Below are positions 536-37,580 of a DNA stretch of 64,000 bases, piece by piece. Made by a program: the position numbers and the translations under genes. The notes below the pieces were generated by a model, which saw nothing but the letters and a program-made list of their open reading frames with translations, was not told where the DNA came from and did not search any database. Every line of letters begins with the position of its first letter. Position 1 is the stretch's first letter. The stretch is from a virus: the IMG/VR virus record IMGVR_UViG_3300047323_000673, positions 96,001 to 160,000 of that record; one strand, given 5' to 3'.

Positions 536-1006
536 TTATATTTTTAATTTATTAATTTTATTTTCCTCATTAATAGGTAGTTCAGTAGCTAAAGATTGCT
601 TTAAACCTCTCATTTCAAACATATGATTAATTTTCTGCGCTTCATCTTTATCCATACCTTTTAGGTTCCATTCTAGCTCCCAAGATAAAGGCATATTTAA
701 TTCAGAAATAAAATAGTTGGCAATATCCCAGTTTTTATTTTCAATTACAACCCAAAATATAAAGCCATAATTTGTATTAAAATCATTTAATGCTTGTTTG
801 TTCTCATGTTCTATAAGGTATTTTACAATATCAAGTTTATTATGCATGCAGGCTTCTCTTAAAAGTTCTCTTCCTACATCTTTCAAACCTTCACAAGCAA
901 TAGCAACATCAGTAAAAAAATTTTTTACAATATTTAATTGTCCTCTTGATATAGCTTTAACTAATTTCGCATAAAATGCATGTCTATTATCATTATTTAT
1001 TTCCAT
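536..1006 (-). CDS. Short ankyrin-repeat protein with conserved C-terminal module and basic tail
   Basis: LREACMHNKLDIVKYLI; ends MFEMRGLKQSLATELP...KINKLKI. Confidence 0.8.
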   Translation of the reverse strand: MEINNDNRHAFYAKLVKAISRGQLNIVKNFFTDVAIACEGLKDVGRELLREACMHNKLDIVKYLIEHENKQALNDFNTNYGFIFWVVIENKNWDIANYFISELNMPLSWELEWNLKGMDKDEAQKINHMFEMRGLKQSLATELPINEENKINKLKI

Positions 1007-1007
1007 A

Positions 1008-1823
1008 TTAAACCTTTAATTTTTTATTTATTTGATTGTCTTTATTACTAGGTAATTCTTTTCCTAAAGACTTCTGTAATTCTCTAGTTTCAAACATATG
1101 ATTGATTGATTCAGATCTAGAACGGTTAATTAAGTGTTGCTCTATATTAGAGGTTTTTTCAATATTTAAATTAAAAATTAAATACTTTAGAATATCTGTA
1201 TGATTGTTTTCATAAGCTAACTTAAATAAACAATCATTATCTTTATGAATGTCATATTTTTCTTTTATCCCATCTGTTTCTAGTAAAAATTGTAATACTT
1301 GTATTTGATTATTTTCACATGCTGCATAAAGTATAGAACCTGTGGTGTATTCAAAATCAATAATTTCGCTATAAGTTTCATTAAAGAAAAAATGCTTTAT
1401 AATTGCTAAATGTCCTTTAGAACTAGCTGATATTAAACCTGAAGTGATGGTTTTATTATAATTAAGCGGTTTTTGATTATTGCTAGTTTTCTTTTTATTA
1501 AGTTTTTCTTGAAAAAACTCAACTACTTCTAAGTTTCCACCATCAAAGCCTTTACTTAATAAGTTTTTAAGTGAAAGAGAATTATTTATATTATTGATAA
1601 AATGACTTAATTGAGGAGCATTCCATATTGCTTCACATATATGAAAATGTCCTTTCATTGATGCAAAAATAAGCATTTGCACAGAAAGAGATGGATTTTC
1701 CTTTAAATAATTTTGGTTATTTTCAGAATTGATAAATTCTAAAACAAATTGTAAATCTCCCTCTCTACATGCTTTATGTACATTGTGAGCAAAACGAGTA
1801 TTAGGAGCATAAAATTTAGTCAT
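1008..1823 (-). CDS. Ankyrin-repeat protein, array 1
   Basis: ACREGDL, SASSKGHLAIIK, AACENNQIQVLQFLL; ends YLIFNLNIEKT...MFETRELQKSLGKELP...KKLKV. Confidence 0.9.
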   Translation of the reverse strand: MTKFYAPNTRFAHNVHKACREGDLQFVLEFINSENNQNYLKENPSLSVQMLIFASMKGHFHICEAIWNAPQLSHFINNINNSLSLKNLLSKGFDGGNLEVVEFFQEKLNKKKTSNNQKPLNYNKTITSGLISASSKGHLAIIKHFFFNETYSEIIDFEYTTGSILYAACENNQIQVLQFLLETDGIKEKYDIHKDNDCLFKLAYENNHTDILKYLIFNLNIEKTSNIEQHLINRSRSESINHMFETRELQKSLGKELPSNKDNQINKKLKV

Positions 1824-1824
1824 A

Positions 1825-2583
1825 TTATAATTTAATTTTTTTACTTGCAGTTTGATTGATAATCTTTAAACTTTGTTGAAGTGATTTATTTAACTCTCTT
1901 GAGTTAAACATTTCTTCAGCATAACTATTATTATACCTCATTATAAAATAACTAACATCTTTTGTTTTTGGGATATCTAAATCAAAAATAAGAAATTTAA
2001 GAAGTGCATCATTATTATTTTCGCATGCAAGTTCAAAAGCCTTAGTTCTGTCATTCCAATCATTAAAAACTGAATTTATTAACACACATTTAGCAATATT
2101 AATTGTTTGAGATGAATAAATATTCTTTAAGAAAAAGAAATTGCCAAAAATAGATAAGTAATTATTTTCAGGATCATGTGGGTTTACCAAGGCCATAAAA
2201 AGTGGCACATTATCATTACTTACTGAAATATTAATTTGTTCATCTACAAATGAAGGAAAAGTATAAGATACACAAGGCGCAGGATGATTAACTAAATAAG
2301 AAATAATGGGTAGAGTATTTTCTTTAGGACATTTTAATAATTCTTCTAAAGCAGACTTTATATTTTCTGTACGCTTCATATACTGGTTACAAATATCAGA
2401 ACTTAAAAAGAATTTCACAATATCTAAATGCCCATTTAGGCTAGCAGACATAAGTAATTTTTCAGCAAAGGGATTTGCTCCATACATAAGAAAGTTAGAG
2501 CATACATCTTTTATTAACTCTTTTACATTATCTAAGTCACCAATTTCACAGGCTTTATATATTTTGTTTTCTATAATATTCAT
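1825..2583 (-). CDS. Ankyrin-repeat protein, array 1
   Basis: ACEIGDLDNVK, ASLNGHLDIVKFFL; ends FLIFDLDIPKT...MFNSRELNKSL...KKIKL. Confidence 0.85.
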   Translation of the reverse strand: MNIIENKIYKACEIGDLDNVKELIKDVCSNFLMYGANPFAEKLLMSASLNGHLDIVKFFLSSDICNQYMKRTENIKSALEELLKCPKENTLPIISYLVNHPAPCVSYTFPSFVDEQINISVSNDNVPLFMALVNPHDPENNYLSIFGNFFFLKNIYSSQTINIAKCVLINSVFNDWNDRTKAFELACENNNDALLKFLIFDLDIPKTKDVSYFIMRYNNSYAEEMFNSRELNKSLQQSLKIINQTASKKIKL

Positions 2584-3323
2584 TATATTTTAATCTTTTT
2601 AATGTTTTTTGTATTATCGTCTAATTCTTGATGGAGAGAAGCATTTAAATCTCTTGAATTAAACATTTTTAGAATTTGTGGATCATTTTTTATGTGGGCA
2701 ATAATATCTTGTGTTTTTTCTATGTTTAAATTAAAAATAAAATATTTTAAAACATCTAATTGGTTATCATCATAAATAACTTTAAAAGCTTCATCATTAT
2801 ATAAATGAATATCAATATAATCTTTTATTTCATCGTTAGTAAAAAGGTAATCAACGATATTTAAGTGACCATTTCTAGAGGCTTTAATAAGTATGTCACC
2901 TTGTTTTATATTATCCATTAAACCAGAATCATTTGGAAAATTTTCAACAAGATATTTAAACATATCTAGCCTGCCATAGCTTGCAACATATCTAGGAAGC
3001 TTGTCCATAAAGTCATTACCTTTATTTTTAATTAATGCAGGATGATCTAGCATAAATTTTAAAATATCAAATCTATCATAAATACAGACTTGTTGTGCAT
3101 ATGTATCTAAATGATATCTATCAAAATTTTCTTCATTTTTAAAAGATGAATTCCAAAGAAGTTTTAAAATATCTAGGTGGCCTCCTTTTATGGCATTTAT
3201 AGTCATAATATAGGAAGATATTTGATTATTAGATTTAGCCTCATCAGAATTTAAGAAATTTTGAATAATTTCAAAATCACCTTTTTCACAAGCTTCATAT
3301 ATAGTTAGAGGTTCAGTATTCAT
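2583..3323 (-). CDS. Ankyrin-repeat protein, array 1 (start moved from 3362 to 3323)
   Basis: MNTEPLTIYEACEKGD; ATG 1 nt after upstream TAA; ASRNGHLNIVDYLF; tail KKIKI. Confidence 0.88.
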   Translation of the reverse strand: MNTEPLTIYEACEKGDFEIIQNFLNSDEAKSNNQISSYIMTINAIKGGHLDILKLLWNSSFKNEENFDRYHLDTYAQQVCIYDRFDILKFMLDHPALIKNKGNDFMDKLPRYVASYGRLDMFKYLVENFPNDSGLMDNIKQGDILIKASRNGHLNIVDYLFTNDEIKDYIDIHLYNDEAFKVIYDDNQLDVLKYFIFNLNIEKTQDIIAHIKNDPQILKMFNSRDLNASLHQELDDNTKNIKKIKI

Positions 3324-3324
3324 A

Positions 3325-4050
3325 TTATATTTTAATTGTTTTAGATTTCGCCTGATTGTCATTTAATTCTTCATTAAGAGAATTGTTTAAATCTCTTATA
3401 TCAAATAGTTTTTTTAGTTCTGGCTCGTTTCGCATATATTCTTCTAAAAAAGGAGTTTTTTCAATTTGCAAATCAAACACTAAATAATTTAATATATCAA
3501 AATGATTATTTTTATAAGCTGCTCTTATTGTTACATCTTTATTAACATGAATATCTACATATTTTTTTAAATTTTCTGTATTAAGAACATACCTAATAAC
3601 ATCTATATGTCCGCAAGAAGCAGCATTACTAATTATTTCACCATTTGTTAATTTTGTTTTTATAATTTTATTATCTAAAAATTTATTGAATAGGTATTCA
3701 AATATTTCTAAACTGCCATTTTTAGAAGCATCTATACAAGCTTGTCCAAGAAAATCGTCAGCTAATAATTTTGGATGGGTTAATAAAAGATTTAACATAT
3801 CTACTTTTATATCATTACAAACGATTTGAATACATCCTTTCATATTAATATCATCAAATAATTCATCATTATTTTCTAATTGATTAAAAAGATAATCTAG
3901 CATTTCAAACTGACTACCTTTGATAGCAAATAAAGGTAAAAGACTAATTGATATTTTAATGTCATTGTTATCATTATTGAAAAAATCTTTAATTGTTTCC
4001 AAATCACCAGCTTCACATGCATTATATATATCGATAGCACGAGTATCCAT
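3325..4050 (-). CDS. Ankyrin-repeat protein, array 1
   Basis: ACEAGDL, ASKNGSLEIFEYL, AASCGHIDVIRYVL; tail KTIKI. Confidence 0.88.
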   Translation of the reverse strand: MDTRAIDIYNACEAGDLETIKDFFNNDNNDIKISISLLPLFAIKGSQFEMLDYLFNQLENNDELFDDINMKGCIQIVCNDIKVDMLNLLLTHPKLLADDFLGQACIDASKNGSLEIFEYLFNKFLDNKIIKTKLTNGEIISNAASCGHIDVIRYVLNTENLKKYVDIHVNKDVTIRAAYKNNHFDILNYLVFDLQIEKTPFLEEYMRNEPELKKLFDIRDLNNSLNEELNDNQAKSKTIKI

Positions 4051-4054
4051 AATT

Positions 4055-4840
4055 TTAAACTTTCACTTTCTTACTACTAATTTGATTTGACCCCAATTCA
4101 TTATTGAGTTCTTTATTTAATTCTCTAGCTTGAAACATTTTTTCTGCATTTTCATAATTATCTTGAGCGATAAATCTTTTTATTTCTTGTGTTTTTTCAA
4201 TATTATATTCAAATATAATAAATTTTAAAAGTTCATCATTCCCATAAAAACAAGCATCTTTAAATCCAATTTCAGGATCAAAAAGAGGGAATAATTGAGG
4301 TGTAGAATAAAGATATTTAAGTACTTGAGGATCTTCATTGCGACAACCTTCTTCAAATAATTTGGTATTATTTAACATAACTTTAGCTTGTTCAGGGTAA
4401 TTGTCTGCATTTAATAAGATTTTAAAAAGCACAAGGTTGTCATTTCTAGCAGAATTTTGTAAATACCAACCTAAAGATGTATAAAAATTTTTAGAGTGAA
4501 CTAATCTAGATTCATTGAGAATATATGAAATTATTGGGTATAGCTTTAATTCATTATTCACTAAAATATCTTCCAAAAGGACATCAAATGTTTGATTAAC
4601 AATATTTTCAGTGTTAATTTTTTCTAAAAAATATGGTGTTTCTATAAGAAATTCAATAATATTTAAATGTCCAAATAAACAAGTATTCTGAAAAATTTTT
4701 TTAGCACTTTCATATTCAATATGATATTCATTATTAAAAGAAATTTGAGGCAAAAGTTCTTTAACTTTATCTAAAGAGTTATTTTCACATGCACTTATAA
4801 TTGATTGAACTAATTCTTTTTGAATTTTATTATTACTCAT
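4055..4840 (-). CDS. Ankyrin-repeat protein, first gene of array 1 (start likely 4840)
   Basis: GAGG RBS before MSNNK; ACENNSLDKVK, TCLFGHLNIIEFL; tail KKVKV. Confidence 0.85.
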   Translation of the reverse strand: MSNNKIQKELVQSIISACENNSLDKVKELLPQISFNNEYHIEYESAKKIFQNTCLFGHLNIIEFLIETPYFLEKINTENIVNQTFDVLLEDILVNNELKLYPIISYILNESRLVHSKNFYTSLGWYLQNSARNDNLVLFKILLNADNYPEQAKVMLNNTKLFEEGCRNEDPQVLKYLYSTPQLFPLFDPEIGFKDACFYGNDELLKFIIFEYNIEKTQEIKRFIAQDNYENAEKMFQARELNKELNNELGSNQISSKKVKV

Positions 4841-4987
4841 ATTTTTCCTCATTTATAACTATATTTTATCAGATTTAATTCAATAAACAATAATCTATAA
4901 AAGTGCTGAATTACTATAAAAATTAATGGATATAATCTCACTTTTGAGTTAAAATAGTCATAATTAAATTTAAAGTATGGAGTAAAC

Positions 4988-6788: not shown

Positions 6789-7565
6789 TTAAATTTTATT
6801 CTTTTTAATTGTAGGATTATTTGTAGTTGATAATTCATTTTGGATTTCATCTTTCAACATTAATTTACAAACGAAATGTAATTTTTCATCATTTGGTTCT
6901 GTCAAAGATTTAACGAATTTTTTAATAAATTCAGAATCTCTTATATTACTCAATTTAGAATATACAATCATTGCTGTTTCAAATTGATTATTATTACAAG
7001 AGGCTATAAAGCTAGCTTCTATTAATTTTGTAGGAATTTCTACAGGAGTTGATAACAAATAGTTTATTAATGCATTATTTCCATCTTTGGATGCGGTAAT
7101 TAAGCCATGTTCATTAAAGGTATTCAATAACTCTTCTTTGTGTGTTGAATAAATTGCATACACTTGAGAAAAATAGGATGTTGGGTCTTCTTTAATTATT
7201 GAATATTCATCTATAATGGAAGAATTAGTCATCATATGTTTTGATAAATTAAAAGAATTATCTAATATTTGTAATCTTTCTATGGATTTAGAAGAACATA
7301 TGGAATTAAATAATTTTTCCAACATAAAATCAGGAATTTTTATTTTTTCTTTTTTAAAAAACTCACAAAGAAGATCGAAAACTGCTAACTCCCTTAAGTT
7401 AGCAGCAGAAATTAATCCTAGAAAAAGGCAATCAGTACTTAAATATTCTTTGACATTTTTTCTATTTAATATTTGCTGCACATCATCTACACAATTGGTG
7501 TGAATCATATCTAAGAAAGCTGATGGAAAGTCTTTTGGTTTTATTTTTGATGTATTTAAATTCAT
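6789..7565 (-). CDS. Degenerate ankyrin-like protein with basic tail
   Basis: GLITASKDGNNALINYLL, FIASCNNNQFETAM; ends EIQNELSTTNNPTIKKNKI. Confidence 0.7.
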   Translation of the reverse strand: MNLNTSKIKPKDFPSAFLDMIHTNCVDDVQQILNRKNVKEYLSTDCLFLGLISAANLRELAVFDLLCEFFKKEKIKIPDFMLEKLFNSICSSKSIERLQILDNSFNLSKHMMTNSSIIDEYSIIKEDPTSYFSQVYAIYSTHKEELLNTFNEHGLITASKDGNNALINYLLSTPVEIPTKLIEASFIASCNNNQFETAMIVYSKLSNIRDSEFIKKFVKSLTEPNDEKLHFVCKLMLKDEIQNELSTTNNPTIKKNKI

Positions 7566-8375: not shown

Positions 8376-9452
8376 TTAAAGTTTAATTTTCTTTTTAGGA
8401 ACAGCATTTGTAGATAAAGTATTTTGCAACATATGATGATTAACTCTAATTTGTAAGCTGTCTTCTTGAATATGAGTTAAAAGTTGTTCTTTTTTAATAA
8501 CATCTGTAATAAGAAAATATGATAATAATTGAGGTTCAAATTTTAACCCTAAGGCTAATGTTTTCCCACAATCAATAAAATTAATGTTATAATCAATAAG
8601 TTTCATTAATTTATTTCTATCAAGTGTAACTTTAGTAAATGGAATTTTATTGAAAGTAATATATTCTTCTTGTAGTTTGAAATATTCTGAAATGATTTCT
8701 GAAGTTTTATTAATTCCCCAATTATCTATTAAAATATTTAAATCATCTTCTTTGGGTAAATGTAATTTTAATTCAATTATTATACTTTCTGGACTACCAC
8801 CAAAATCATAAACTTGTTTATTATGCTTATATAATAAATTACTAAACAATAAGCCTTTAGAGGATTTTTTTGTCTCTTCAGATTTTGCTGAATCAATAAT
8901 AAAATTTTTAAAATTTTCTTTATCTTTTTCTAAAAAAACTAAAGTATGCAATATATTACAATTATGTTCATAAAAGTGCTTTAAATTATCAATATTAATT
9001 TTATGATCTAATTTATTAGAAAAATAATATTTAGAAGAGTAATCACGACTATATAAGCTAATATTGTTTTTATTAAGATCAAAGATTGATTCAAAATAAT
9101 CAGTTCCATAAAAATCAAGTAAAATATCATGACATTTATTTTTATTTTGTAATGAAATAAAATCCCATTTTTTGGGTGGAATAGTTTTAAATTGTTCTTC
9201 GTATCTAGTAAGAACTTCTTTAAATAAATTATCAGCATCTTTCTCCAAAGTTAATAGGTCTACAATGGAATGACCTTTAGAATCTTTATGAAATCCATTA
9301 TTAGCAAATAACAAGTATTCAAAACTCATGCTTTCATAAATTCTATCTTCCTTAAAATGCTCAATAAGCTTATCAAGCGTCATTGCATTAGCATGAAAGA
9401 AAGAAAATGTGGTAATTAATCCATGAAAATTTAAATCTGGTTGTACATTCAT
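8376..9452 (-). CDS. Uncharacterised family B member 4 (~360 aa, basic tail)
   Basis: Shared LP..EDL.ILI..WG..KTS..IS.Y...Q.EY and LA.GLK motifs; tail KKKIKL. Confidence 0.8.
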   Translation of the reverse strand: MNVQPDLNFHGLITTFSFFHANAMTLDKLIEHFKEDRIYESMSFEYLLFANNGFHKDSKGHSIVDLLTLEKDADNLFKEVLTRYEEQFKTIPPKKWDFISLQNKNKCHDILLDFYGTDYFESIFDLNKNNISLYSRDYSSKYYFSNKLDHKINIDNLKHFYEHNCNILHTLVFLEKDKENFKNFIIDSAKSEETKKSSKGLLFSNLLYKHNKQVYDFGGSPESIIIELKLHLPKEDDLNILIDNWGINKTSEIISEYFKLQEEYITFNKIPFTKVTLDRNKLMKLIDYNINFIDCGKTLALGLKFEPQLLSYFLITDVIKKEQLLTHIQEDSLQIRVNHHMLQNTLSTNAVPKKKIKL

Positions 9453-9455: not shown

Positions 9456-10568
9456 TTATAGTTTCACTTTTTTCTTAGGTAAATCAATTTTTTTATCTAG
9501 ACTCAGATCTAACATATAATGTTCGGCCTTAATTTTTAATTCACTATCATTAATATTTATTAAAAGATCGTCTTTTTTAATAATATCATTAATAATAAGA
9601 TAAGACATAATCTCTGACTCATCTCTTAATCCAAAGGCAAGTGATTTTCCACAATTATTAAAATTAATCCCAGCATTAATAAGAGATTTCATTATTTCTC
9701 TTTCAAACTTAAATGGGTAATCATTATTATCATTAAAAGACAATATATATTCATTTTGAAAATTAATAAAGTCTGAAATTACTTTTGAAGCTTTTTCATT
9801 GCCCCATTTTGCAACTAATATATTAAATTCTTTTTCATTTGGTAAAAAAATGCTCACATAATGATTTATGGAACGAACACTATAATGTTTTAGCATTAAG
9901 TTTTCAAAATTAAAATCATTAGAAGTAATTAATGCTAAATCTCCTAAATTATCGGATGATTTATTATCAAACATAAATTTTTTAAAACCTTCAGTATCAG
10001 CTTCAAAGAAATTTAATAGATGAAGCATAGGTTTAGTAAGCATCTTATTAAAAAGCTTCATATTATCTATTTTATAAAAATAATCTAACTTATCTTGTAA
10101 ATAATATTTAGTAAAATGCTCTACAGAATAATAAAGAACATTTTTTTTCATATCTACAATTTTATCCATAACATTCTTACCATAAAATTTTGTCAAAGAA
10201 TTATGGCATTCATTTGGATTAACCCATATCATGAATCCCCATTCATTTGGTAAAAAATTTTTAAGTTGATCTTGATATTTTTCTAATATACTAGAAAACA
10301 ATGGATGGTTACTCTCATCATTAACCATGTAAAGTAATAAATTAAAACCTCTTTCATCTGGTTTGAATAAAACATCAATTAAATCAATATTAGATTCAGC
10401 ATTACATCTTTTAAGCATTGTATGAATTTTTGATTCAAACTCATTTAATGACAATTTAAATAAATCTTGATTAGAAGCATAAGTAGTTAATGTCTCTATG
10501 GTTTTTGTGTCAATTGATAAATTACTATATGTTGGTAGCAATGAGATTGCTTTATTATTTAAATCCAT
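9456..10568 (-). CDS. Uncharacterised family B member 3
   Basis: LPNEKEFNILVAKWGNEKASKVISDF; tail KKKVKL. Confidence 0.8.
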   Translation of the reverse strand: MDLNNKAISLLPTYSNLSIDTKTIETLTTYASNQDLFKLSLNEFESKIHTMLKRCNAESNIDLIDVLFKPDERGFNLLLYMVNDESNHPLFSSILEKYQDQLKNFLPNEWGFMIWVNPNECHNSLTKFYGKNVMDKIVDMKKNVLYYSVEHFTKYYLQDKLDYFYKIDNMKLFNKMLTKPMLHLLNFFEADTEGFKKFMFDNKSSDNLGDLALITSNDFNFENLMLKHYSVRSINHYVSIFLPNEKEFNILVAKWGNEKASKVISDFINFQNEYILSFNDNNDYPFKFEREIMKSLINAGINFNNCGKSLAFGLRDESEIMSYLIINDIIKKDDLLININDSELKIKAEHYMLDLSLDKKIDLPKKKVKL

Positions 10569-12853: not shown

Positions 12854-13198
12854 TTAACATTTAATTAATTCTGATACATCAGAAGAATGTAATTGCATGC
12901 CAGATTTATGGTAAGTAACAATATTTTCTTCTTTCTTTAAAAGAACATGCTCAAATAGATCATTTAATGCTTCTTTAACTCTTGTTGTGACAGACATATT
13001 CATAGTCAACATATTTGAGAATTTAATATAGCCGGAAAGATTTTTACAGAAATCCAAATATTTAGAATCTTCTTTTTCATGAACAAAAACCATTTGCAAA
13101 TGCTTATTAATAACATTAACTTGATTTTCGTTTAGTTCATATACAGTATTAATTTCAAACAGTCCTTGCAACCAATAACAAAATTCAATAGCTTTCAT
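12854..13198 (-). CDS. Small internally duplicated protein, FCYWLQG family
   Basis: MKAIEFCYWLQGLFE, second copy DFCKNLSGY; ends LIKC. Confidence 0.8.
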   Translation of the reverse strand: MKAIEFCYWLQGLFEINTVYELNENQVNVINKHLQMVFVHEKEDSKYLDFCKNLSGYIKFSNMLTMNMSVTTRVKEALNDLFEHVLLKKEENIVTYHKSGMQLHSSDVSELIKC

Positions 13199-21158: not shown

Positions 21159-21159
21159 A

Positions 21160-23543: not shown

Positions 23544-23545
23544 AC

Positions 23546-28321: not shown

Positions 28322-29092
28322 TTAAATTTTATTTTTTTTGATTTTTTCTTGATTTTCATTTAATTCTGACTGAAGTCCTTGATTCAAATCTCTTAGCTCA
28401 AATAATTTTTCAACTTCATTATCACCATGTATAAAAATTTTTATTGTTTCAGTTTTTTTAATATTTAAATCAAAAATAAGATATTTAAGCACATTAATTT
28501 GGTCATATTGATGTGCATAGAAAAATCCTTTATCATCATTAATATGTATATCAATATGTTTATTTAATTCAGGTGAAGTAAGTAGATATTTAACCATATC
28601 TAAGTAGCCATGCTCACATGCAAACTCTAATAATCTGCCTTCTTTTAAATCAACCTTTGGATTATCAGGTATTTCAGGAGATGTTAGAAAATATTTTAAA
28701 ATATTTAAATGACCATATCTAGCTGCCAATATAATACCTTTATCACAATTATATTTAAGTGTAGGTTTTTGACATACTTCAAGTGAAAACAAATAATATT
28801 TAATGACATCTAAATTACCACCTCTGCAAGCCTTTTCATAAGAGTAAGAATCTGCAATAGCATGCTCTTTAAGCTCTGGGGATGTTAAAAGATATTTAAG
28901 AACATCAAGATGCCCATTAAGTGCTGCTAAAGCAACACATTCATCTCCAGCATAATGTATTTTAGCATTATATTTTAACTTGGAAGATGTAAGAAAATAT
29001 CTGACAAGATTTAAATCGCCAGCTTCACAAGCATCAAGAAATGTCATATTTAACTCATCTTGAGTTAATTCATTATAATTAACAGAAATCAT
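28322..29092 (-). CDS. Ankyrin-repeat protein, array 2 (gene 5)
   Basis: AALNGHLDVLKYLLTSPELKEHA; tail KKNKI. Confidence 0.92.
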   Translation of the reverse strand: MISVNYNELTQDELNMTFLDACEAGDLNLVRYFLTSSKLKYNAKIHYAGDECVALAALNGHLDVLKYLLTSPELKEHAIADSYSYEKACRGGNLDVIKYYLFSLEVCQKPTLKYNCDKGIILAARYGHLNILKYFLTSPEIPDNPKVDLKEGRLLEFACEHGYLDMVKYLLTSPELNKHIDIHINDDKGFFYAHQYDQINVLKYLIFDLNIKKTETIKIFIHGDNEVEKLFELRDLNQGLQSELNENQEKIKKNKI

Positions 29093-29844
29093 ATTTTTAT
29101 TTTTTTAGTTGATTGATGATTAGTTTCTAAGTTTTCATGCAAATTTCTATTTAATTCTCTTTTATTAAACAACTCAACTATATCATATCTATTATTTTCT
29201 ACTAAATAATCTCTAATATGTTGGTTCATTTCTATCTTTAAATCAAAAATAAAATAATTAAAAACTGCCATTTGATTATTTTTGCATGCTTCATATATTC
29301 CATAATAAATCATATCTGATACATTAACATTATTAACAAATTCTGGATAATTTAGTAAATACTTTAATATGTTAACATGCCCTTTTTCACAAGTAGATGG
29401 AAATATATCACTTAAGGTTTTTATTTTATTAATATTTTTAAATTGAATATCTGTTAAAAAATAATTTAGAAGTTCTTCTTGTCCAAAAGTTGCTGACATT
29501 ATTATACCCATATTAGCTATATGAGATTTATCTTTTTTTAATGTAGGCAAAGTAAACAAGTATTTTAATATTTCTAGTTGTCCAGTCTCAAAAGAAGAAT
29601 TATAAATAGTGCCAGAATAATCAGAATGTTTGTTTTTTAATAGATACTTTACTATTTCTATTCTTCCAAATAATGTTGCAGATTTAACGGATTCTCGATA
29701 ATTAAATTCTAGATCTGCTTTAATATTTAAATCATCTGATTCAAGTAAGTATTTAGCTAAATTTAAATCACCATCAATACAAGCATGTACGAGTGCTTTA
29801 TTTAATTCATCTTGAGTTAGTTCATTATAATTTACAGAATTCAT
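29089..29844 (-). CDS. Ankyrin-repeat protein, array 2 (gene 4)
   Basis: ACIDGDLNLAKYLL; N-terminus nearly identical to gene 5; tail KKIKI. Confidence 0.9.
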   Translation of the reverse strand: MNSVNYNELTQDELNKALVHACIDGDLNLAKYLLESDDLNIKADLEFNYRESVKSATLFGRIEIVKYLLKNKHSDYSGTIYNSSFETGQLEILKYLFTLPTLKKDKSHIANMGIIMSATFGQEELLNYFLTDIQFKNINKIKTLSDIFPSTCEKGHVNILKYLLNYPEFVNNVNVSDMIYYGIYEACKNNQMAVFNYFIFDLKIEMNQHIRDYLVENNRYDIVELFNKRELNRNLHENLETNHQSTKKIKI

Positions 29845-30602
29845 ATTTTTATTTTCCTAGTTTGCTCATTATGAATTCTTAAATTTTTATTTAAATCTGT
29901 ATGCAAATCTTTTCTTAACTCTCTAATGTTAAACATGTCTAAAATGTCATTTCTACCTGCTTTAATTAAATGCTCCTTTGTATTCTCTTTAAGGGTCATA
30001 TTAAGATTAAATATAAGATATTTCATCATTTCAGTTTCATTACTATCACAAGCAACAATCATTCCTTTATTGCAAGCATTATTAAGACTATTATTTTGTA
30101 TGAATTTTGGCAGATTAGCTAAATACTCAACTACATTTATTTGCCCTGAATTACATGCTCCAGTAAAAAGATCTTCCATTTGGTTATTTTTGACAAATAG
30201 AATAAATTCTTTTGAGGTAAGGAAGTAATCTATAATATTTACTTGTCCGCTTGATGCTGCGGATAATCCACCATAATACCAAGAAGAATCCTTTTCTGAT
30301 TTAAAATCAGTAGCTTCATATACAAGTTTTAAAATTTCTAATTGTCCATTTTGACAAGCATGATAAAATACTATATTAGGATAATGATTTTGGATATCTT
30401 CTAAAAAATACTTAACTACATCAATTTGACCTGATGCAGTAGCTGATTTAATGGCAATCCATTTATTATGAGTGATATCTGCATGAACAGGGAGTTCATT
30501 AGAACTAACAAGATATTTGGCAAGTTCTAAGTCTCCACTTTCACAAGCTTTAACTAACTCTCTATTTAAATCTTGAGATGATAATTTTGTATAATCAATC
30601 AT
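29841..30602 (-). CDS. Ankyrin-repeat protein, array 2 (gene 3)
   Basis: ACESGDLELAKYL, ACQNGQLEILK; tail RKIKI. Confidence 0.9.
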   Translation of the reverse strand: MIDYTKLSSQDLNRELVKACESGDLELAKYLVSSNELPVHADITHNKWIAIKSATASGQIDVVKYFLEDIQNHYPNIVFYHACQNGQLEILKLVYEATDFKSEKDSSWYYGGLSAASSGQVNIIDYFLTSKEFILFVKNNQMEDLFTGACNSGQINVVEYLANLPKFIQNNSLNNACNKGMIVACDSNETEMMKYLIFNLNMTLKENTKEHLIKAGRNDILDMFNIRELRKDLHTDLNKNLRIHNEQTRKIKI

Positions 30603-31759
30603 AGTTTTGGTTTTTTACTTTCTATTTTATTTAAGTTATTAGAGAATTCCTTGTTTAATTCATTTGCTAACTTATTTGTCTCATATAATTTATATAGCTC
30701 AGGAACACTTTTTAAAATTTGAACAAATAATGTATCACTATCAGAATTTGGTGCTATATATTTATAATCTTCAACAATATATCTTAATACTTCGTATTGA
30801 TATTCATCATCATCATTCATTTGCTCATAGTGTATATGATAAATCCACTCAATACTTTCTGTTATATCTATATGATATTTTAAATTTGAATCTGTTAATA
30901 AAAAATGAGCAATATCTGCACTATCATTCCTTAAAACACTTCTAAAAATAATGTCATGGTAAGTATGTATATCGGCATGTTCTTTTAACTCTAGCGAAGT
31001 GGTTAAATATTTTACTAACTCTAAATTGTCGTTTAATACAGAATTTTTAAGTGCTTGGTTATTGTCAGCATGTATATTGGCATGTTCTTTTAAATTGTTA
31101 TCTGTTAAAAGAAATTTCGCAATATTGATATGACCTTTATCGCAAGATACAATTAATGCTCTATCATCTAAGAAATGAATGTCGGCATTTTTAGGTATGT
31201 CTTGATCAAGTAATAAAAACTTTACCATTGCAAGATCATTGCGTTCACAAGCCTTAACAAGTAATTCATCCATATTAAAAAGTTTACCAGCCACAACAAC
31301 TGCATTATATTGTTGGTAGCCAGTCCCCATTATATTGGATTTAACTGCTTCCTTAACTCCATCTGAAGTTAATATTAACTTTACTATTTCATGTTTACCA
31401 CTACTAAAAGCTGTATTGAAAAGAGTATCTAAATTAGATTGAACTATTGTGTCATTTAATAAATATTCAATTATATGTTTTTGATTTTTATAACAAGCAG
31501 ATTCACATCCATCTATAAGCGAAAAAGATAGACTAGAAGAATATGTATGAAATTTCTTAACGATATCAATATGTCCACCGCCACATGCCATAATGAAAGC
31601 CATATTATGATAGCTTTGATTTATTTTTTCTAACAGTTGTTTATTATCTATAATACATGAAATTGCTTCTAAATTACCATCGTAACATAACTGTACAAAA
31701 GTAGCAGTTAAATTTTGTTGGCTTAGCTTTATATATTCATTAAAGTAATCTGTGGACAT
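30599..31759 (-). CDS. Long ankyrin-repeat protein, array 2 (gene 2)
   Basis: 35-aa repeats ADIH...KYLxTxxxLKEHA; tail KKPKL. Confidence 0.9.
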   Translation of the reverse strand: MSTDYFNEYIKLSQQNLTATFVQLCYDGNLEAISCIIDNKQLLEKINQSYHNMAFIMACGGGHIDIVKKFHTYSSSLSFSLIDGCESACYKNQKHIIEYLLNDTIVQSNLDTLFNTAFSSGKHEIVKLILTSDGVKEAVKSNIMGTGYQQYNAVVVAGKLFNMDELLVKACERNDLAMVKFLLLDQDIPKNADIHFLDDRALIVSCDKGHINIAKFLLTDNNLKEHANIHADNNQALKNSVLNDNLELVKYLTTSLELKEHADIHTYHDIIFRSVLRNDSADIAHFLLTDSNLKYHIDITESIEWIYHIHYEQMNDDDEYQYEVLRYIVEDYKYIAPNSDSDTLFVQILKSVPELYKLYETNKLANELNKEFSNNLNKIESKKPKL

Positions 31760-31768: not shown

Positions 31769-33145
31769 TTAAATTTTTAATTTTTTCTGTTCATTTCTAT
31801 TTAATTTATTTTCTTTATTTAATTCATTAGTAAGTTGAATTGTCCTAAAAGCCTTTTTTAATTCAGGATTAGATTCTAACATTTCTTCTATATCTTGAGT
31901 AAATTCTGGATTATTAGTAAATATTTTATGCTCATAAACCAAATATGTTAGAACTTTCATATCATAATGATAGTTAGTTTCAGTTATATTATCATTAACA
32001 TTAACTAAATGTTGTTCTTTTAATTCTTGAAAATTTTTAAAAATATCAGGATGGGTTTTTAATTTTGGACTTTCTAAAAAAAACTCTACTACTTCTTTAT
32101 GATCACCTTTAAATGCTAAATATAAAGCATAATCATTTTGTGCATGAATATCAGCATGATCTTTTAATTCAGGAGAAGTTGTGAGGTAATCAACTAAATG
32201 TAAATTTCCTTCTTTTGCAGCATATAAGAGTGGAGAATCTTCTTGTGCATGAATATTAGCATGTTCTTTTAATTCAGGTGAAGTTAATAAATACTTAACA
32301 GTTTCTAAGTGTCCTCTATGACAAGCATGCAAAAGTGCGGTGTCATCATTAGCATGGATGTCTACCTGTTTATCAGGATCTGAATGAAGTAGAAGATGTT
32401 TGATTAAGGGTAAATAATTGTGTTCACATGCTTTAAAAAATAGTTTTGTTAAAATATTGTTAGGTAAAAATATGTGTTTTTCTTCACAATAAATTAATAG
32501 ATAGTGGGATAATTCGGGCTTGATAGTGGTATTATATTTTACAGGATTAATTAAGCCAATAAAATTAATAGTTTGTCTAGCTTCATGAGGAATAGCAGCA
32601 TCATTTAAATAAAATCTAATTAATTCAAGATTATTATTGGTGTATGCTTCTATTAATAATTTTTTTAATTCAAAACCAAATTGATCAATCATAATAATCC
32701 CCTCATTCAATCGAGGATTATTTTTATTTAATTCAATAACAGAAGAGTCAGTCAATACTTGTTTAATTAAACTTAAGTTGTTTTCAGAAATAGCTTTTTT
32801 CATTATTGGATGCAAAATATTTTTTTTGGAATGAAATAAGTATTGAACAACATCTTTATGATTTTCTTGTAAAGCACAAACTACACTATCATACAGTTCA
32901 ACATTATGGAGCTTATTATTTTTATGAAGTTCTTGAACAACATTAATATGTCCATTAAGGCAAGCTAATTCCAATCCATTACTTATGTGTTCGTATTGTA
33001 TTTTGTATTGTAATTCTTCGTGTTCTAAAATCCAAGCAACCGAATCTAAATCACCTTTGCTACAAGCATTAATAAATAAAATGCCCAATATAGATTTAGA
33101 TGCATTTATATATTTTTTTTGTAAATCTTCAGATAAATAATTCAT
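31769..33145 (-). CDS. Long ankyrin-repeat protein, array 2 (gene 1)
   Basis: Tandem 35-aa units HA.DD.ALL.AC..GHLE.VKYLLTSPELKEHANI; tail KKLKI. Confidence 0.92.
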   Translation of the reverse strand: MNYLSEDLQKKYINASKSILGILFINACSKGDLDSVAWILEHEELQYKIQYEHISNGLELACLNGHINVVQELHKNNKLHNVELYDSVVCALQENHKDVVQYLFHSKKNILHPIMKKAISENNLSLIKQVLTDSSVIELNKNNPRLNEGIIMIDQFGFELKKLLIEAYTNNNLELIRFYLNDAAIPHEARQTINFIGLINPVKYNTTIKPELSHYLLIYCEEKHIFLPNNILTKLFFKACEHNYLPLIKHLLLHSDPDKQVDIHANDDTALLHACHRGHLETVKYLLTSPELKEHANIHAQEDSPLLYAAKEGNLHLVDYLTTSPELKDHADIHAQNDYALYLAFKGDHKEVVEFFLESPKLKTHPDIFKNFQELKEQHLVNVNDNITETNYHYDMKVLTYLVYEHKIFTNNPEFTQDIEEMLESNPELKKAFRTIQLTNELNKENKLNRNEQKKLKI

Positions 33146-33289: not shown

Positions 33290-33308
33290 GTAATTACTTA
33301 ATGCTTAA

Positions 33309-34502
33309 TTATTCTTTAATTTCAAACACTTGTTTCAAGTAAGTCAAATATTCATCGTTTTTGCACATGGTTTTACCTGGCGAATCACTGATTTTGGCAA
33401 CAGGTGAGCCGTTGCATTCAGTCATTTTAATCACGATATTCAGTGCTTTTACACCCATATCGTTAGTCAAATTAGTGCCAATACCGAAGAACATTTTTGC
33501 CTGACCTTCAAAGGTTTTGTAAATATCAATCGCTTTCGGAACATCAAGACCATCCGAGAATACAAGACTCTTGGTTTTTGGATCGATTTTCATTTTCTTG
33601 TAGTGATCAATAAATTTTTGAGCCCATTCTTTTGCATCACCACTATCATGACGAACACCATCAAATAGTTTGCAGAAATAAAGGTCAAAATCACGCAAGA
33701 AAGCATCAGTTCCGACAACATCAGTCAATGCGATAGCGACATCACCACGATATTCTTGAACCCAATTTTCAAGAGCATATTTTTGGCTATCACGCAGGCG
33801 AGGTCCCAATGCTTGGCAAGCTTGCAGATATTCATGAGCCATTGTGCCAACTGGAGTCAAATTATATTTCATTGCGAACAAAACATTACTAGTGCCAGTA
33901 AAATTGGTTGGCAGTGATTCCTTCAAAGCCTTGACAACTTGTTCGTGCCATTGACGCGAAAAACGGCGGCGAGTACCGAAATCCGAGAATTTAAAGTCTT
34001 CATGATTAAAATCTTGAAGCATCTTAATTTTCTCAGCAAGACGCTTGCGACCTTCTACATAAAGCTCATCACTACCATATTGACGGAAATAAACTTCATT
34101 AACAATTGCTAGAACAGGAACTTCAAATAGAATGGTATGAACCCAAGGGCCACGAATAACAATATCAATTTCTTCGTCATCCAATTGAACAACATTAATA
34201 TATTGGCGTTGCATACGGAAGATGTTCAAGAATGCAATGTAGTCAGGCTTGAAGTATGCACGAGTGCTTAGATAATCAAGTTCTTCTTTAGTGAATTCAA
34301 GAGTGCAAAGATGGTCAATTTGACGATTGATCTCATCAATATATTTAACCATGTTGGCACCTTTAGTGCGGCACTTAAAATGAAATTCAACATTATGAGC
34401 ATGAGGGAATTGATGTAGAACCGTTTGCTGCATAGTAAATTTATACAGATCAGTATCCAACAGCGAAGTGATGATAGGGTTGAATTCTTGTGCTTTAGTC
34501 AT
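33309..34502 (-). CDS. pncB: Nicotinate phosphoribosyltransferase
   Basis: [63 protein letters not shown]; GGAG RBS. Confidence 0.96.
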
Positions 34503-34628: not shown

Positions 34629-34630
34629 CT

Positions 34631-35219: not shown

Positions 35220-35252
35220 TTAGTTGCTTTTTCCAACTAACTGAGTTATAAT
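35220..35252 (+). promoter_or_regulatory. nadD-nrtR promoter overlapped by the same palindromic operator
   Basis: TTGCTT (35224)-17-TATAAT (35247); TTAGTTG-7 nt-CAACTAA at 35220..35240. Confidence 0.8.
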
Positions 35253-35280
35253 GTCTAAAATCACGATAAAAGAAGGTTAT

Positions 35281-35814
35281 ATGCGAAAAATTGGACTTTT
35301 TGGTGTAACAGGTAATCCACCACATTTGGGGCATTTAAAGGCAGTAAAAGAGGCAATAAATTCTTGTGATGAAGTTTGGGTATCTCCAGTATATATCCAT
35401 CCATTTAACAAGAAATTTATTGACTACTCTCATCGCCTTGCAATGCTGAATTTATTATTTGAAGGATTGGATAAGGTTAAAATTGTAGAGCTAGATAAAG
35501 AATTTTTTCTCAAAAACAATAAAACTCCATATAGTTACGACTTATTGAAGTTTATGAAAGATGAAAACAAAGATATTTCTCCATTATTAGTAATTGGAGA
35601 GGACAATTATAAAGAAAATGTATGGCAAAAATTTTATTTTCATGATAAAATTGAATCAGAATTTGGATTAATTGTAGTAAAAGATTCTGGTGCTCATAGC
35701 ACTCAAGTTCGTTCGTTTTGTCATGATGGTAATTGGGCAATGGTTGCTCAAGAGTGTGGACAGCCAGTTGCTGAATACTTAAGAAAAAATCAAATTAATT
35801 ATGTTGGAGATTAA
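35281..35814 (+). CDS. nadD: Nicotinate/nicotinamide mononucleotide adenylyltransferase (start moved to 35281)
   Basis: MRKIGLFGVTGNPPHLGH (HxGH), HPFNK, R.AML, LVIGEDN, HSTQVR; the track start at 35251 overlaps the -10 box. Confidence 0.85.
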   Translation: MRKIGLFGVTGNPPHLGHLKAVKEAINSCDEVWVSPVYIHPFNKKFIDYSHRLAMLNLLFEGLDKVKIVELDKEFFLKNNKTPYSYDLLKFMKDENKDISPLLVIGEDNYKENVWQKFYFHDKIESEFGLIVVKDSGAHSTQVRSFCHDGNWAMVAQECGQPVAEYLRKNQINYVGD

Positions 35815-35815
35815 A

Positions 35816-36520
35816 ATGAGTCATGATAATCCGAATTTAGAGAAAAATATGTTTGTTGCTAGTGTAGATCCTGTTATTTTTTCTATCATTAATAATGAAC
35901 TACACATTCTGCTGATTAAGCGCACAAGTAATGACCCTAAAAAGCCAGATATCTTTGAAGGTTATTGGGCTTTCCCTGGTGGGTTAATGGAGCATGGGGA
36001 TTCATCTATGGAGGCCGCAGTTAGCCGCGTTTTGGCTAATAAAACTGGTGCCAAAGTTAATTATATGGAACAACTGAATTCTCGCAAAAATCACGATCCT
36101 CGTGGAGCAACGATTTCAATTTCTTATATTGCTCTTGTTGATGAACAAAAAGTAAAAGAAAATGCTGTTTGGATGCCTTTGAGTGAAGTGAGGAAAACTG
36201 TATTAGCTTTTGACCATAATGGTGTTGTTGATGTTGCTATTGAGCGTTTAACTAGTAAGGTTAATTATTCAACACTGCCAATGCATTTTCTTCCACAACC
36301 ATTTACTCTGCCTAAATTACAGAAAGTTTATGAGATTTTGTTAGGTGAGGAGTTAGATAAAAGCACTTTCCGTGAAAAGATTAAAGAAACCAATGCTATT
36401 TACAAAACTGGTGAAAAGATTAAAGAAGGTCCACATCGACCATCTGATCTTTATCGCTTAGTGAATGATAAAGTGCATAATTTTGATAGCAATATTATTC
36501 GTTCTTCACAGAAAGCATAA
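35816..36520 (+). CDS. nrtR: NrtR-like NUDIX-wHTH transcriptional regulator (start moved to 35816)
   Basis: VDPVIF...LLIKR...WAFPGG, DPRG.TIS.SY.AL, LAFDH, FTLPKLQKVYE.LLG...DK.TFR, HRP..LY; GGAGA RBS; next to NAD genes. Confidence 0.85.
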   Translation: MSHDNPNLEKNMFVASVDPVIFSIINNELHILLIKRTSNDPKKPDIFEGYWAFPGGLMEHGDSSMEAAVSRVLANKTGAKVNYMEQLNSRKNHDPRGATISISYIALVDEQKVKENAVWMPLSEVRKTVLAFDHNGVVDVAIERLTSKVNYSTLPMHFLPQPFTLPKLQKVYEILLGEELDKSTFREKIKETNAIYKTGEKIKEGPHRPSDLYRLVNDKVHNFDSNIIRSSQKA

Positions 36521-36536
36521 ATTAAAGGAAATAATC

Positions 36537-37580
36537 GTGAAATCAACTAATATTAATGTTTTCTCCCTATTGGAGCTTTCAGACCAAGAAATCATTAATA
36601 CTATGAAGTCATTAATGTCTGAAGGAATCAGTATTAATGATGTTCTTGGAGATGAAAATCACCAATATACTATGATGCATGCTTGCTGCTTTTTCTTAAA
36701 AGATAAAGCACTTGCATGGATGCTTGAAAATGGTGCTGAAGTTGATATGAAATGCTCTACCACGACTGCTCTTGGGATGTTAGTAAGTAATTTTTTTTCA
36801 AATAAGGAAAGAGGGACAAACTATTGGTCAAAGTTTCGTGCTTGTTTAGCTATTTTAAAAAAGCATGAGGCTAATTTTGATATTCTGAATCATGAAAAGA
36901 AAAAGCCTCTTTTTGCTCTTTTAGAATATGAGAAAACCAAAATTCCCCAAGAGATTATGAATATCTTCTTTGATAGAACTACTTTAAAAGAGAAGAAAGG
37001 GATGAATATTGTTGATGCTTTACTAAAAAACGAAATAAACTTTACTCCTACAAACATTAATTATATTGTAGAGAAGAAATCTTATGATTTAAATAGTAAA
37101 AATGAACCTCAAAATTCGCTTGCTTTTAGCTTAGCAAACCTTCCTGAAAAGATTTTCAAGAAGATGAAAAAAGCAATTGAAAGTATTTATGAAAAGTATA
37201 GTTTTAAACTGAATATTCCCAATAACACTAAAAATGTTAAAGCAATATCAGTTCAGCCAATTGAGGTGGCCATTACTAAGAAAAATTTAAGTTTTTTTAA
37301 GTTTATCTTAGAAAAATGTCCTGAAATTATTAAGCATAAATTCGGGACTATGGACTTGACCCAATATTGTGCTATGGTTGGATTCAAAGATGGATTAAAA
37401 TTTATGTTGACATCTAATCAATTTGATTGGGAGAATAAAGACGAACTTGTAAATATTTGTTCTAGAGCTAAAGACAAAGGATTGGTCAAAAAAGAACATA
37501 TGAAACATTTATATGATTCTTTCAGTGCAGAATTGACCACCAATGTCCCCGTAAAACCAGTAAAGCGAATGAAGTTGTAA
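36537..37580 (+). CDS. Ankyrin-like protein with basic tail (start likely GTG 36537)
   Basis: AAGGA RBS; TMMHACC...MLENGAEVD; ends FSAELTTNVPVKPVKRMKL. Confidence 0.72.
   Translation: MKSTNINVFSLLELSDQEIINTMKSLMSEGISINDVLGDENHQYTMMHACCFFLKDKALAWMLENGAEVDMKCSTTTALGMLVSNFFSNKERGTNYWSKFRACLAILKKHEANFDILNHEKKKPLFALLEYEKTKIPQEIMNIFFDRTTLKEKKGMNIVDALLKNEINFTPTNINYIVEKKSYDLNSKNEPQNSLAFSLANLPEKIFKKMKKAIESIYEKYSFKLNIPNNTKNVKAISVQPIEVAITKKNLSFFKFILEKCPEIIKHKFGTMDLTQYCAMVGFKDGLKFMLTSNQFDWENKDELVNICSRAKDKGLVKKEHMKHLYDSFSAELTTNVPVKPVKRMKL

Follow-up and report, generated by a model that had tools for sequence, protein, structure and literature searches.

The window considered here is a stretch of 64,000 nucleotides corresponding to bases 96,001-160,000 of a single 180,807-bp record (IMG/VR record IMGVR_UViG_3300047323_000673; G+C 27.4%), and the element in question is a short C-terminal tag shared by soluble proteins of several families. 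Tagged genes of the window lie between positions 536 and 37580, where 46 genes were called; 31 of these end in K-[ILV] and 30 in [KR]-x-x-K-[ILV]. The 31 genes are exactly the open reading frames (ORFs) that an initial annotation, made from the DNA letters, had singled out for such a tail. They are listed below, with scores from a position-specific scoring matrix (PSSM) of the tag where relevant; LRR stands for leucine-rich repeat and aa for amino acids.

536-1006, 1008-1823, 1825-2583, 2583-3362, 3325-4050 and 4055-4852, minus strand: six tagged ankyrin-type genes, with Pfam Ank on 536-1006 and all six in the ankyrin BLAST cluster
6789-7565, minus strand: tagged singleton of 258 aa without secure family, PSSM 5.0, followed by an intrinsic terminator
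8376-9452, 9456-10568, 10581-11651 and 11676-12740, minus strand: four family B paralogues of 354-370 aa, helical (alignment A5), with a terminator after 8376
14806-15423 and 15420-16034, minus strand: two tagged LRR-like paralogues of a four-member contig family, PSSM 21.2 and 26.0, without Pfam match
18996-19778, 19780-20592, 20589-21191, 21160-22020, 22022-22777, 22779-23543, 23546-24310, 24313-25086 and 25148-25933, minus strand: the first nine of 17 tagged ankyrin genes (Pfam Ank), with a terminator after 18996
25930-26697, 26756-27529, 27531-28319, 28322-29092, 29089-29844, 29841-30602, 30599-31759 and 31769-33145, minus strand: the last eight of the 17 tagged ankyrin genes (Pfam Ank)
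36465-37580, plus strand: weak carrier of 371 aa with a basic-hydrophobic end and the helix out of register, rigid PSSM -27.8, followed by a terminator

In the six-gene array at 536-4852 (minus strand), each gene has its tag in the final ~21 codons, on the low-coordinate side. Regarding the weak carrier at 36465-37580, the called start overlaps the end of nrtR and the true start may be further downstream. The initial annotation had divided the carriers into 25 ankyrin-type proteins, four of family B and two LRR-like ones; the last two groups stand, as do 23 clear ankyrin proteins, but the remaining two are singletons (6789-7565 and 36465-37580) with weak or no Pfam support. Its observation that the tag persists on genes ending at terminators is borne out, as an intrinsic terminator directly follows the stops at 6789, 8376, 18996 and 37580, this last one evidently being the gene it had placed at 36537.

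Over the whole record, to which all the counts that follow refer unless otherwise stated, 237 genes were considered and those ending in K-[ILVM] were taken as the base set of carriers, namely 140/237 genes, of which about 128 exhibit the full two-part tag. This full tag reads L-x-x-E-L-x-x-E-L, a polar linker and then K-K-hydrophobic-K-hydrophobic-COOH. Some 125/237 genes end in [KR]-x-x-K-[ILVM] and 108/237 in [KR][KR]-x-K-[ILVM], and tagged genes occupy 57% of the DNA of the record. Numbered back from the C-terminal residue, the consensus comprises L(-21), E(-18), L(-17), E(-14), L(-13), N(-10), K(-5), K(-4), L/I/P/M(-3), K(-2) and I/L/V(-1), where L(-17) and L(-13) are each found at the exact distance in about 90/140 tails. 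Three parts can be distinguished along the tag, i.e. an amphipathic acidic helix at -21 to -13 prolonging the final helix of the cargo domain, a flexible linker at -12 to -6 that is polar and enriched in N, S, T and K, and the terminal K, K, hydrophobic or Pro, K and I/L/V with its free carboxylate at -5 to -1. Arginine is almost never tolerated at -2 or -5, and the last hydrophobic residue as well as the Leu/Glu helix are conserved as much as the lysines. The net charge of the last 25 residues is +1.9 and is Lys-based.

The tag is strictly C-terminal. With a C-anchored PSSM of 21 residues and a threshold of at least 10 bits, 127/237 C-termini were matched vs. 2/50,741 internal windows, and both internal matches lie within a few residues of a C-terminus, one being a register-shifted tail and the other a read-through pseudogene (contig 22981-23640). 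This C-anchored PSSM was used instead of a 24-residue hidden Markov model of the DUF285 tails (hmmsearch), which proved too short and too family-specific to work across families. Inside proteins, the pentapeptide [KR][KR]xK[ILVM] has a frequency of 3.5e-4 per residue, and not one of 110 out-of-frame shadow ORFs ends in it (0/110); since it is rare internally and absent from the ends of shadow ORFs, AT bias cannot explain the tag. A tag-like end is found in at most 1/97 untagged genes, and the AT-bias artefact that the initial annotation had itself raised against the tag thus finds no backing in these counts. Established targeting patterns that end a protein were also considered and rejected as identities of the tag, with the KKXX/KXKXX pattern for retrieval to the endoplasmic reticulum present in 0/140 carriers and the type 1 peroxisomal targeting signal (PTS1, [SAC]-[KRH]-[LM]-COOH) in 1/140.

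Besides its position, the tag is confined to soluble proteins and is absent from housekeeping, exported and membrane proteins. Segments resembling transmembrane helices are found in 0/139 true carriers vs. 28/97 untagged genes, in line with the claim that carriers are without such segments. Regarding the untagged genes of the window, the initial annotation had described PncB, NadD, NrtR, HD, GGDEF and exported proteins as devoid of the tag; this holds for PncB, the cytidylyltransferase-like protein (its NadD), NrtR, HD and the exported proteins, but the GGDEF protein does end in K-V, with a tail that is not tag-like (PSSM -40.6). These genes are as follows.

33309-34502, minus strand: untagged pncB (Pfam), negative control
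35251-35814, plus strand: untagged cytidylyltransferase-like gene (Pfam), negative control
35801-36520, plus strand: untagged nrtR (Pfam), negative control
37612-64000, various genes: untagged rest of the window, with HD, GNAT, metallophosphatase, RNase H, SBP-VWA, DUF2807, exported TPM-domain and GGDEF proteins, among others

Within 37612-64000, K-[ILV] is found at the end of 60222-61346 and 61568-61939 only, with tails that are not tag-like in either case.

One and the same tag is shared by at least seven carrier families plus singletons. Once their last 35 residues were removed, the carriers fell into 23 BLAST components, distributed over the record as follows.

DUF285/BspA-type LRR: 65 carriers (Pfam)
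Ankyrin: 34 carriers (Pfam)
DUF4116: 9 carriers (Pfam)
HREDGPA-repeat family: 6 carriers (BLAST clustering)
LRR-like: 4 carriers (BLAST clustering)
Family B, without known fold: 4 carriers (no Pfam or NCBIfam match)
DUF1281/Api92-like: 2 carriers (Pfam)
Singletons, including an AEP-like protein and a WGR protein: about 16 carriers (Pfam)

Portability across these families was assessed with a PSSM trained on DUF285 tails alone, a pass being a score above the 99.9th percentile of a null obtained from untagged proteins. Passes were recorded for 31/34 ankyrin proteins, 8/9 DUF4116, 6/6 HREDGPA, 4/4 LRR-like, 3/4 family B, 2/2 DUF1281 and 9/16 singletons, vs. 1/97 untagged genes, and the upstream helix part without the basic end still transfers between families. 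In the window, 27/31 carriers pass this rigid matrix, while the four failing ones (genes starting at 1008, 11676, 19780 and 36465) have a linker longer by one or two residues or a weaker helix part.

The tag is constrained as protein and not as DNA. Synonymous codons at the conserved positions of the tail approach genome-wide use, with AAA and AAG for Lys, five or six Leu codons, and GAA and GAG for Glu. One effect was seen at the DNA level, namely an excess of ATA as codon of the last Ile (67% vs. 28% genome-wide); an ATGA stop/start overlap with the next gene is present in 49/125 carriers and absent from 76/125, and as the ATA excess goes with these overlaps, translational coupling shapes the last codon. 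In the ankyrin family, pairwise identity reaches 39% in the tail vs. 23% in the body, and the tail ranks 5th of 226 windows along the alignment (A2). In an AlphaFold2 model of the ankyrin protein encoded at 22779-23543 (predicted local distance difference test, pLDDT, 90.5), the last helix (residues 222-246) includes the Leu/Glu segment and is followed by a disordered end of eight residues; in the model of a family B protein, of low confidence (pLDDT 67), the last helix spans residues 331-347 and is likewise followed by a disordered end. Searched against PDB with Foldseek, this family B model gave no significant match.

Regarding the bodies of the carriers, the 65 DUF285 proteins (contig 5501-70689, L001-L004) have invariant N- and C-caps between which whole 24-residue repeats are added or removed, giving lengths of ~165-381 aa, and variable positions lie between conserved scaffold residues; such variability suggests a diversifying binding repertoire. 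Decayed members of the tagged families are also present on the minus strand (contig 22981-23640, 34072-35016, 91557-92236 and 93666-94346) and illustrate how loss of the tag looks, i.e. a lost stop with the tag read through by six residues, a K->R change at -2, a split ankyrin gene with a tag-bearing fragment, and truncation before the basic end.

The tag is not restricted to this record. A profile search with the DUF285 carriers retrieved many metagenomic proteins, on contigs of JGI, ENA, Logan and NCBI, and about 90 of the best 120 have the same tail. In a sister genome of 2.217 Mb (L010), the same head-to-tail arrays are present with the tag on 20/27 genes. Metagenomes of drinking water and activated carbon yielded a more distant lineage (L008, L009), in which DUF285, ankyrin and orphan genes are likewise tagged; its tails end in K-hydrophobic-K-hydrophobic-COOH in 13/14 cases but include K-[KR]-x-[KR] in only 4/14. 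Among GTDB species genomes, a scan with the DUF285 alignment recovered only DUF285 bodies (query ~1-130) from unrelated phyla, and the combination of C-cap and tail was present in none of the 80 best loci; the alignment of this combination (A3) was too variable to seed a scan.

Components of the Dot/Icm system, a type IVB secretion system, co-occur with the tag in this lineage. Outside the window but inside a DUF285 array, a 313-aa protein (L002:18037-18978, plus strand, i.e. contig 37037-37978) matches coupling proteins of the IcmO/DotL type (NCBIfam TrbC_conju). Its residues 48-199 exhibit 58% identity to residues 197-340 of a full-length DotL/IcmO, and the same region aligns with residues 214-362 of Legionella DotL (PDB 6sz9_A). 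Other segments of DotL, including the ATPase core, have no match anywhere on the record and the rest of the 313-aa protein is unrelated to DotL; as only residues 48-199 match and no ATPase core is found, it represents a stand-alone DotL-derived domain. By the structures of TrwB and VirD4, this region is probably the all-alpha domain of the coupling protein. In other type IV secretion systems (T4SSs), it is this all-alpha domain that binds substrates (PMC8740702). The 313-aa protein is a candidate receptor, decoy or regulator for the tag.

A second Dot/Icm-derived gene, also outside the window, encodes a 150-aa member of the IcmW family (contig 1770-2222, minus strand; PF23130, 56.7 bits for a cut-off of 27) with 37% identity to canonical IcmW. 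It adjoins the first tagged array as well as a gene for a 487-aa Lon-like AAA ATPase without detected protease domain (contig 279-1742, minus strand), and similar 150-aa IcmW variants occur in other metagenomes (P0339, P0340). Canonical IcmW (P0358) is encoded on a contig of 2,230,803 bp, a length identical to that of the contig with the window's own proteins, and this contig is taken as the window's own chromosome. Full-length DotL genes lie on sister chromosomes of 2.217-2.224 Mb, where the DotL neighbourhood includes IcmW, IcmV, DotM (NF033890, 316 bits, above cut-off) and a DotL with the acidic C-terminal tail typical of the family. The distant tag-bearing lineage also encodes DotM and DotL, its DotL and a tagged DUF285 protein both listing a longest contig of 129,388 bp, and a DotB/PilT-like ATPase flanks a tagged array in L008. 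The secretion-related genes found in or near tagged arrays are of the Dot/Icm type only, and no tag was found on the Dot/Icm components or the housekeeping genes of the relatives' loci. As a side observation on these coupling proteins, many DotL/IcmO homologues of the relatives (P0345, P0122, P0124 and others) have ~1,130-1,170 aa with LAGLIDADG/intein domains (PF14528), and one cluster member is annotated as intein/homing endonuclease, suggesting that an intein sits within the type IV coupling ATPase of these relatives.

Taken with the cargo, these data make it probable that the tail is a Dot/Icm translocation signal, through which an expanded repertoire of soluble repeat proteins is recruited and then injected into a eukaryotic host. 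The carriers would be made in the bacterial cytosol without Sec signals, a type IV coupling complex (DotL-DotM and adaptors of the IcmS/W type) would bind the tail, and the bound protein would then be fed into the channel; once in the host, the variable repeat surfaces would bind host targets. Recognition by the coupling complex, translocation and the eukaryotic nature of the host are the steps that we infer. The cargo domains are eukaryote-like interaction repeats (ankyrin and DUF285/BspA-type LRR), with DUF4116, family B and others as further cargo. The initial annotation had proposed that a large set of cytosolic cargo is marked for delivery by a T4SS, and this reading is the best supported; it is strengthened by the Dot/Icm coupling-complex genes in the lineage, including DotL on the sister 2.2-Mb genomes, and by the Dot/Icm-derived genes inside the tagged region, the DotL-derived domain being one of them. 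The system concerned is, however, of type IVB and not VirB/D4 as had been suggested, and the tail agrees better with Dot/Icm signals than with the Arg-rich ones of VirB/D4.

Several traits of known Dot/Icm signals (Nagai 2005, Kubori 2008, the E-block of Huang 2011 and the consensus OSS of Lifshitz 2013, after PMC2701608, PMC3814349 and PMC5802825) are found again in the tag. The Dot/Icm signal lies at the C-terminus of effectors (PMC2701608), and the tag occupies the last ~20-25 residues of soluble cargo. Passages of PMC2701608 (citing Nagai 2005) and PMC3814349 describe a hydrophobic residue or proline at -3 or -4 as critical for the signal; here, L/I/V/M/F/P is present at -3 in 116/140 carriers vs. 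41/97 untagged genes. Tiny and polar residues are enriched near the end of Dot/Icm effectors (PMC2701608), and such residues make up 80% of positions -12 to -6 in carriers vs. 64% in untagged proteins. Many effectors carry a Glu-rich block that binds basic patches on DotM, although this E-block is found in a subset of Legionella effectors only (PMC5802825); at least two acidic residues are present at -22 to -10 in 123/140 carriers, in an E-L-x-x-E-L arrangement with the acidic positions at ~-14 to -18. In a passage of PMC5802825, the OSM peptide, ending in L-K-E, is the computed consensus OSS with its last L changed to E, a change that abolishes transport; OSS therefore ends in L-K-L, and the tag has a similar hydrophobic-K-hydrophobic end. 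Ankyrin and LRR proteins as eukaryote-like cargo, and DotL, DotM, IcmW and IcmV in the lineage, add to the likeness with the systems of Legionella and Coxiella. As to the differences, the tag is register-fixed and near-invariant, net positive, devoid of EExxE, and with its acidic residues on a Leu-spaced helix; it is a predicted signal only, and its carriers are encoded in long tandem arrays of paralogues. Judged from these features of the sequence, the tag conforms to most of the Dot/Icm signal grammar and would probably act as such a signal, yet represents a distinct and far more rigid variant.

Some of these features speak against a Dot/Icm signal. The EExxE block is absent from the last 30 residues of all carriers (0/140). 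Legionella DotM bound only net-acidic Glu-rich peptides (PMC5802825), and given the net positive charge of the tail, its receptor may be a protein other than DotM. Besides, the sister DotM keeps the equivalents of R197, R217 and R314, but R196 is replaced by D and R315 by T, these five being residues that DotM of Legionella needs to bind Glu-rich peptides. A near-invariant motif is unprecedented for Dot/Icm signals, which are degenerate, and may reflect another receptor or another function. Finally, we infer a complete Dot/Icm apparatus on the window's own chromosome from IcmW and from the sister genomes. A predicted complex of the tail (A3, 23-62), the DotL-derived domain (A4, 40-210) and the cytosolic domain of DotM (L092) had a score of 0.00, which counts neither for nor against binding.

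Other C-terminal labels help to delineate the tag. XVIPCD, found in the antibacterial type IVA effectors of Xanthomonas (PMC8740702), is likewise a conserved and portable C-terminal module marking an effector set for one T4SS, and its reader is the all-alpha domain of the coupling protein. The corresponding region of DotL is present here as a stand-alone copy inside the cargo arrays. XVIPCD is, however, a folded domain of ~120 residues with a Gln-rich tail, it directs toxins that have paired immunity proteins into bacteria, and it has no sequence similarity to the tag. The VirB/D4 signals (Agrobacterium VirF and VirE2, Bartonella BID plus tail, Anaplasma AnkA) are short, net positive and C-terminal on soluble effectors, including ankyrin proteins, but they are Arg-based and degenerate, whereas the tag uses Lys almost exclusively with a fixed hydrophobic last residue; no VirB/D4 system was encountered in the analysis. 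The C-terminal domain of the type IX secretion system, PEP-CTERM and LPXTG also represent a single C-terminal label on many unrelated proteins for one dedicated machine; they come into play once Sec export has taken place and depend on a signal peptide at the N-terminus, whereas the carriers have none.

The rivals to a Dot/Icm signal differ in what they make of the basic end. It could be a sorting signal for the host cell, either a monopartite nuclear localization signal (NLS) as in SV40 large T and c-Myc or a polybasic-hydrophobic membrane anchor, with export relying on other features and the tag steering more than 100 effectors to the nucleus or membranes of the host, which is rather unlikely. 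The endings do resemble the SV40 and c-Myc NLS cores, where a hydrophobic residue often comes after K-[KR]-x-[KR]. This core lies within the last six residues of 105/140 carriers, and S4TE relies on NLS motifs when predicting type IV effectors (PMC3814349). Yet an NLS works at any position and its binding pockets take K or R, whereas the tag is tied to the terminus, as the PSSM counts indicate, and nearly excludes Arg at -2 and -5; its final hydrophobic residue and upstream Leu/Glu helix are conserved as the lysines are, and the NLS consensus is lost in most tails of the distant lineage while the K-hydrophobic-K-hydrophobic end is kept. The NLS consensus invoked by the initial annotation is weakened accordingly, although a second, post-delivery sorting role of the tag is possible. 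That the tag addresses another export route (type I, type IVA, type VI, vesicles or a contractile injection system) is unlikely: it is net positive as for VirB/D4 substrates (PMC3814349), it is far more rigid than any known Dot/Icm signal, and the genes inspected on the organism's own chromosome are those of the 180-kb record, but the secretion genes in or near the arrays (the IcmW paralogue, the DotL-derived domain and the DotB/PilT-like ATPase) are of the Dot/Icm type only, the coupling proteins found are of type IVB only and the R-x7-R-x-R-x-R pattern is absent from the tag. Type I signals are, besides, described as poor in Lys.

Still less probable is a role in the bacterium itself, the tail acting as a C-terminal degron or as a ligand of PDZ proteins or tail-specific proteases that keeps the proteins low or conditional. 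Dependence on a free C-terminus is typical of ssrA-like degrons and of PDZ ligands, and the Lon-like AAA ATPase adjoining the IcmW paralogue could be seen in this light, though it has no obvious protease domain; against this, the 57% of a 180-kb region devoted to expanding and diversifying eukaryote-like repeats is hard to square with degradation, the region revealed neither a PDZ protein nor a partner protease, and the two-part architecture of 21 residues exceeds that of typical degrons. A packaging signal for virions or a signal for conjugative transfer on a mobile element, as the initial annotation had envisaged for its replicon, is very improbable. The IMG/VR provirus class and a few genes of the mobile-element type would be in its favour, but capsid and terminase matches are lacking on the record, ten large proteins scanned have no PHROGs structural match, chromosomal genes are found throughout, the record has no match among GenBank phages and its arginyl-tRNA synthetase (ArgRS) has no relatives in IMG/VR. 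Lastly, a functionless tail due to AT-rich codon bias, start/stop overlap or shared ancestry is effectively refuted by the counts: the ATA excess and the ATGA overlaps are what it can draw upon, but most carriers (76/125) are without such an overlap and several end at terminators, shadow ORFs do not end in [KR]-x-x-K-[ILVM] either (0/110), and the tail is common to families without similarity in their bodies and conserved across diverged lineages.

Starting from a Dot/Icm signal, a more specific and more tentative proposal may be made from the gene content, that is the tag would be half of a lineage-specific address-label system on Dot/Icm, the other half being the duplicated receptor parts in the cargo arrays, i.e. 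the copy of DotL ~197-340, the IcmW paralogue and the Lon-like AAA ATPase. If true, the recruitment, and perhaps the unfolding, of several hundred tagged repeat proteins would fall to these parts, and a type IVB system would for the first time have a recognition step defined by sequence, with one motif and one receptor. Without excluding such an address label, the same five terminal residues may double as NLS, which would give more than 100 nucleus-directed effectors.

C-terminal Dot/Icm signals and arsenals of ankyrin or LRR effectors are well known. The literature searched holds no description of one register-fixed motif on more than 100 type IVB effectors, nor of DotL- or IcmW-derived paralogues in cargo arrays, which is weak evidence of absence; nothing relevant was found in it either on a shared C-terminal motif in Legionellales-like symbionts or on DUF285/DUF4116 effector sets. 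As the signals of Legionella and Coxiella are degenerate, the identity of the Dot/Icm signal and of its reader has been only partly answered after twenty years. The tag offers a natural "consensus" signal on more than 125 proteins of unrelated folds, with Dot/Icm-derived candidate receptors in the same region, so that the recognition step becomes directly testable with peptides, point mutants and co-evolution among the many metagenomic relatives, which have variants of the tag. It also provides a simple sequence rule for the effector repertoire of an uncultured, probably protist-associated bacterium of soil and drinking water, and illustrates the expansion of effector families as tandem arrays behind a common address.

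As to the nature of the record, classed as provirus in IMG/VR, it appears to be a doubtful provirus call cut from the ~2.2-Mb chromosome of an uncultured bacterium, because virion genes are lacking, chromosomal genes are present, and proteins encoded by the window are recorded on a 2,230,803-bp contig in a protein collection. The source is probably an uncultured, very AT-rich soil bacterium, with a rhizosphere metagenome as the probable origin; this is the sole sequencing run in which the stretch occurs, and no RNA data set with the stretch was listed. On the record, no match was obtained for the capsid protein of nucleocytoplasmic large DNA viruses (PF04451), the HK97 capsid (PF05065) or the terminase (PF03237), and the PHROGs scan of the ten large proteins returned only nucleases and ATPases. 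Rather than a plasmid or a virus, the DNA appears to be part of a bacterial chromosome, with argS, nadE, pncB, the cytidylyltransferase-like gene and nrtR, as well as genes for a photolyase, a GGDEF cyclase, an SBP-VWA protein, exported TPM-domain proteins and a permuted tmRNA. Genes of the mobile-element type are few, namely those for an HNH/DUF4379 endonuclease, a PcfJ-like protein, an AEP-like protein and an SF1 helicase. The provirus class is probably false and prompted by families of repeat proteins that giant viruses also have, and a 180-kb "provirus" entry of a viral database is hereby flagged as most likely bacterial effector DNA.

Two of these chromosomal genes are of interest in their own right. 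The permuted two-piece tmRNA (L006:4004-4379, plus strand, i.e. contig ~164,004-164,379) has beta_tmRNA as its best Rfam match and encodes the tag peptide ANDTNYSLAA; it is unexpected, given that the Dot/Icm genes suggest a Legionellales-like gammaproteobacterium. The ArgRS (L005:9959-11629, minus strand, i.e. contig 85959-87629) is devoid of the N-terminal Arg_tRNA_synt_N domain, and its nearest Atlas clusters are a mixture of eukaryotes, archaea and bacteria, including the candidate phyla radiation, which allows no placement; argS may have been horizontally acquired or may be a second copy.

Small paralogues are interspersed with the tagged genes of the window. Between the family B and the LRR-like genes, three paralogues of 108-115 aa (12854-13198, 13671-13997 and 14008-14355, minus strand) share an N-terminal motif and all have a C-terminal Cys. 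Two paralogues of ~100 aa, untagged and of no known family (14421-14732 and 16158-16457, both on the minus strand), flank the LRR-like pair and have a conserved motif with Gly-x-x-Cys-Ala-Gly. Further along the window, at 52026-54636 (plus strand), a different and smaller set of Sec-exported proteins shares another kind of C-terminal tail, which is long, rich in Gly and Ser and has W or D as its last residue; the set comprises two exported TPM-domain proteins and one small secreted protein.

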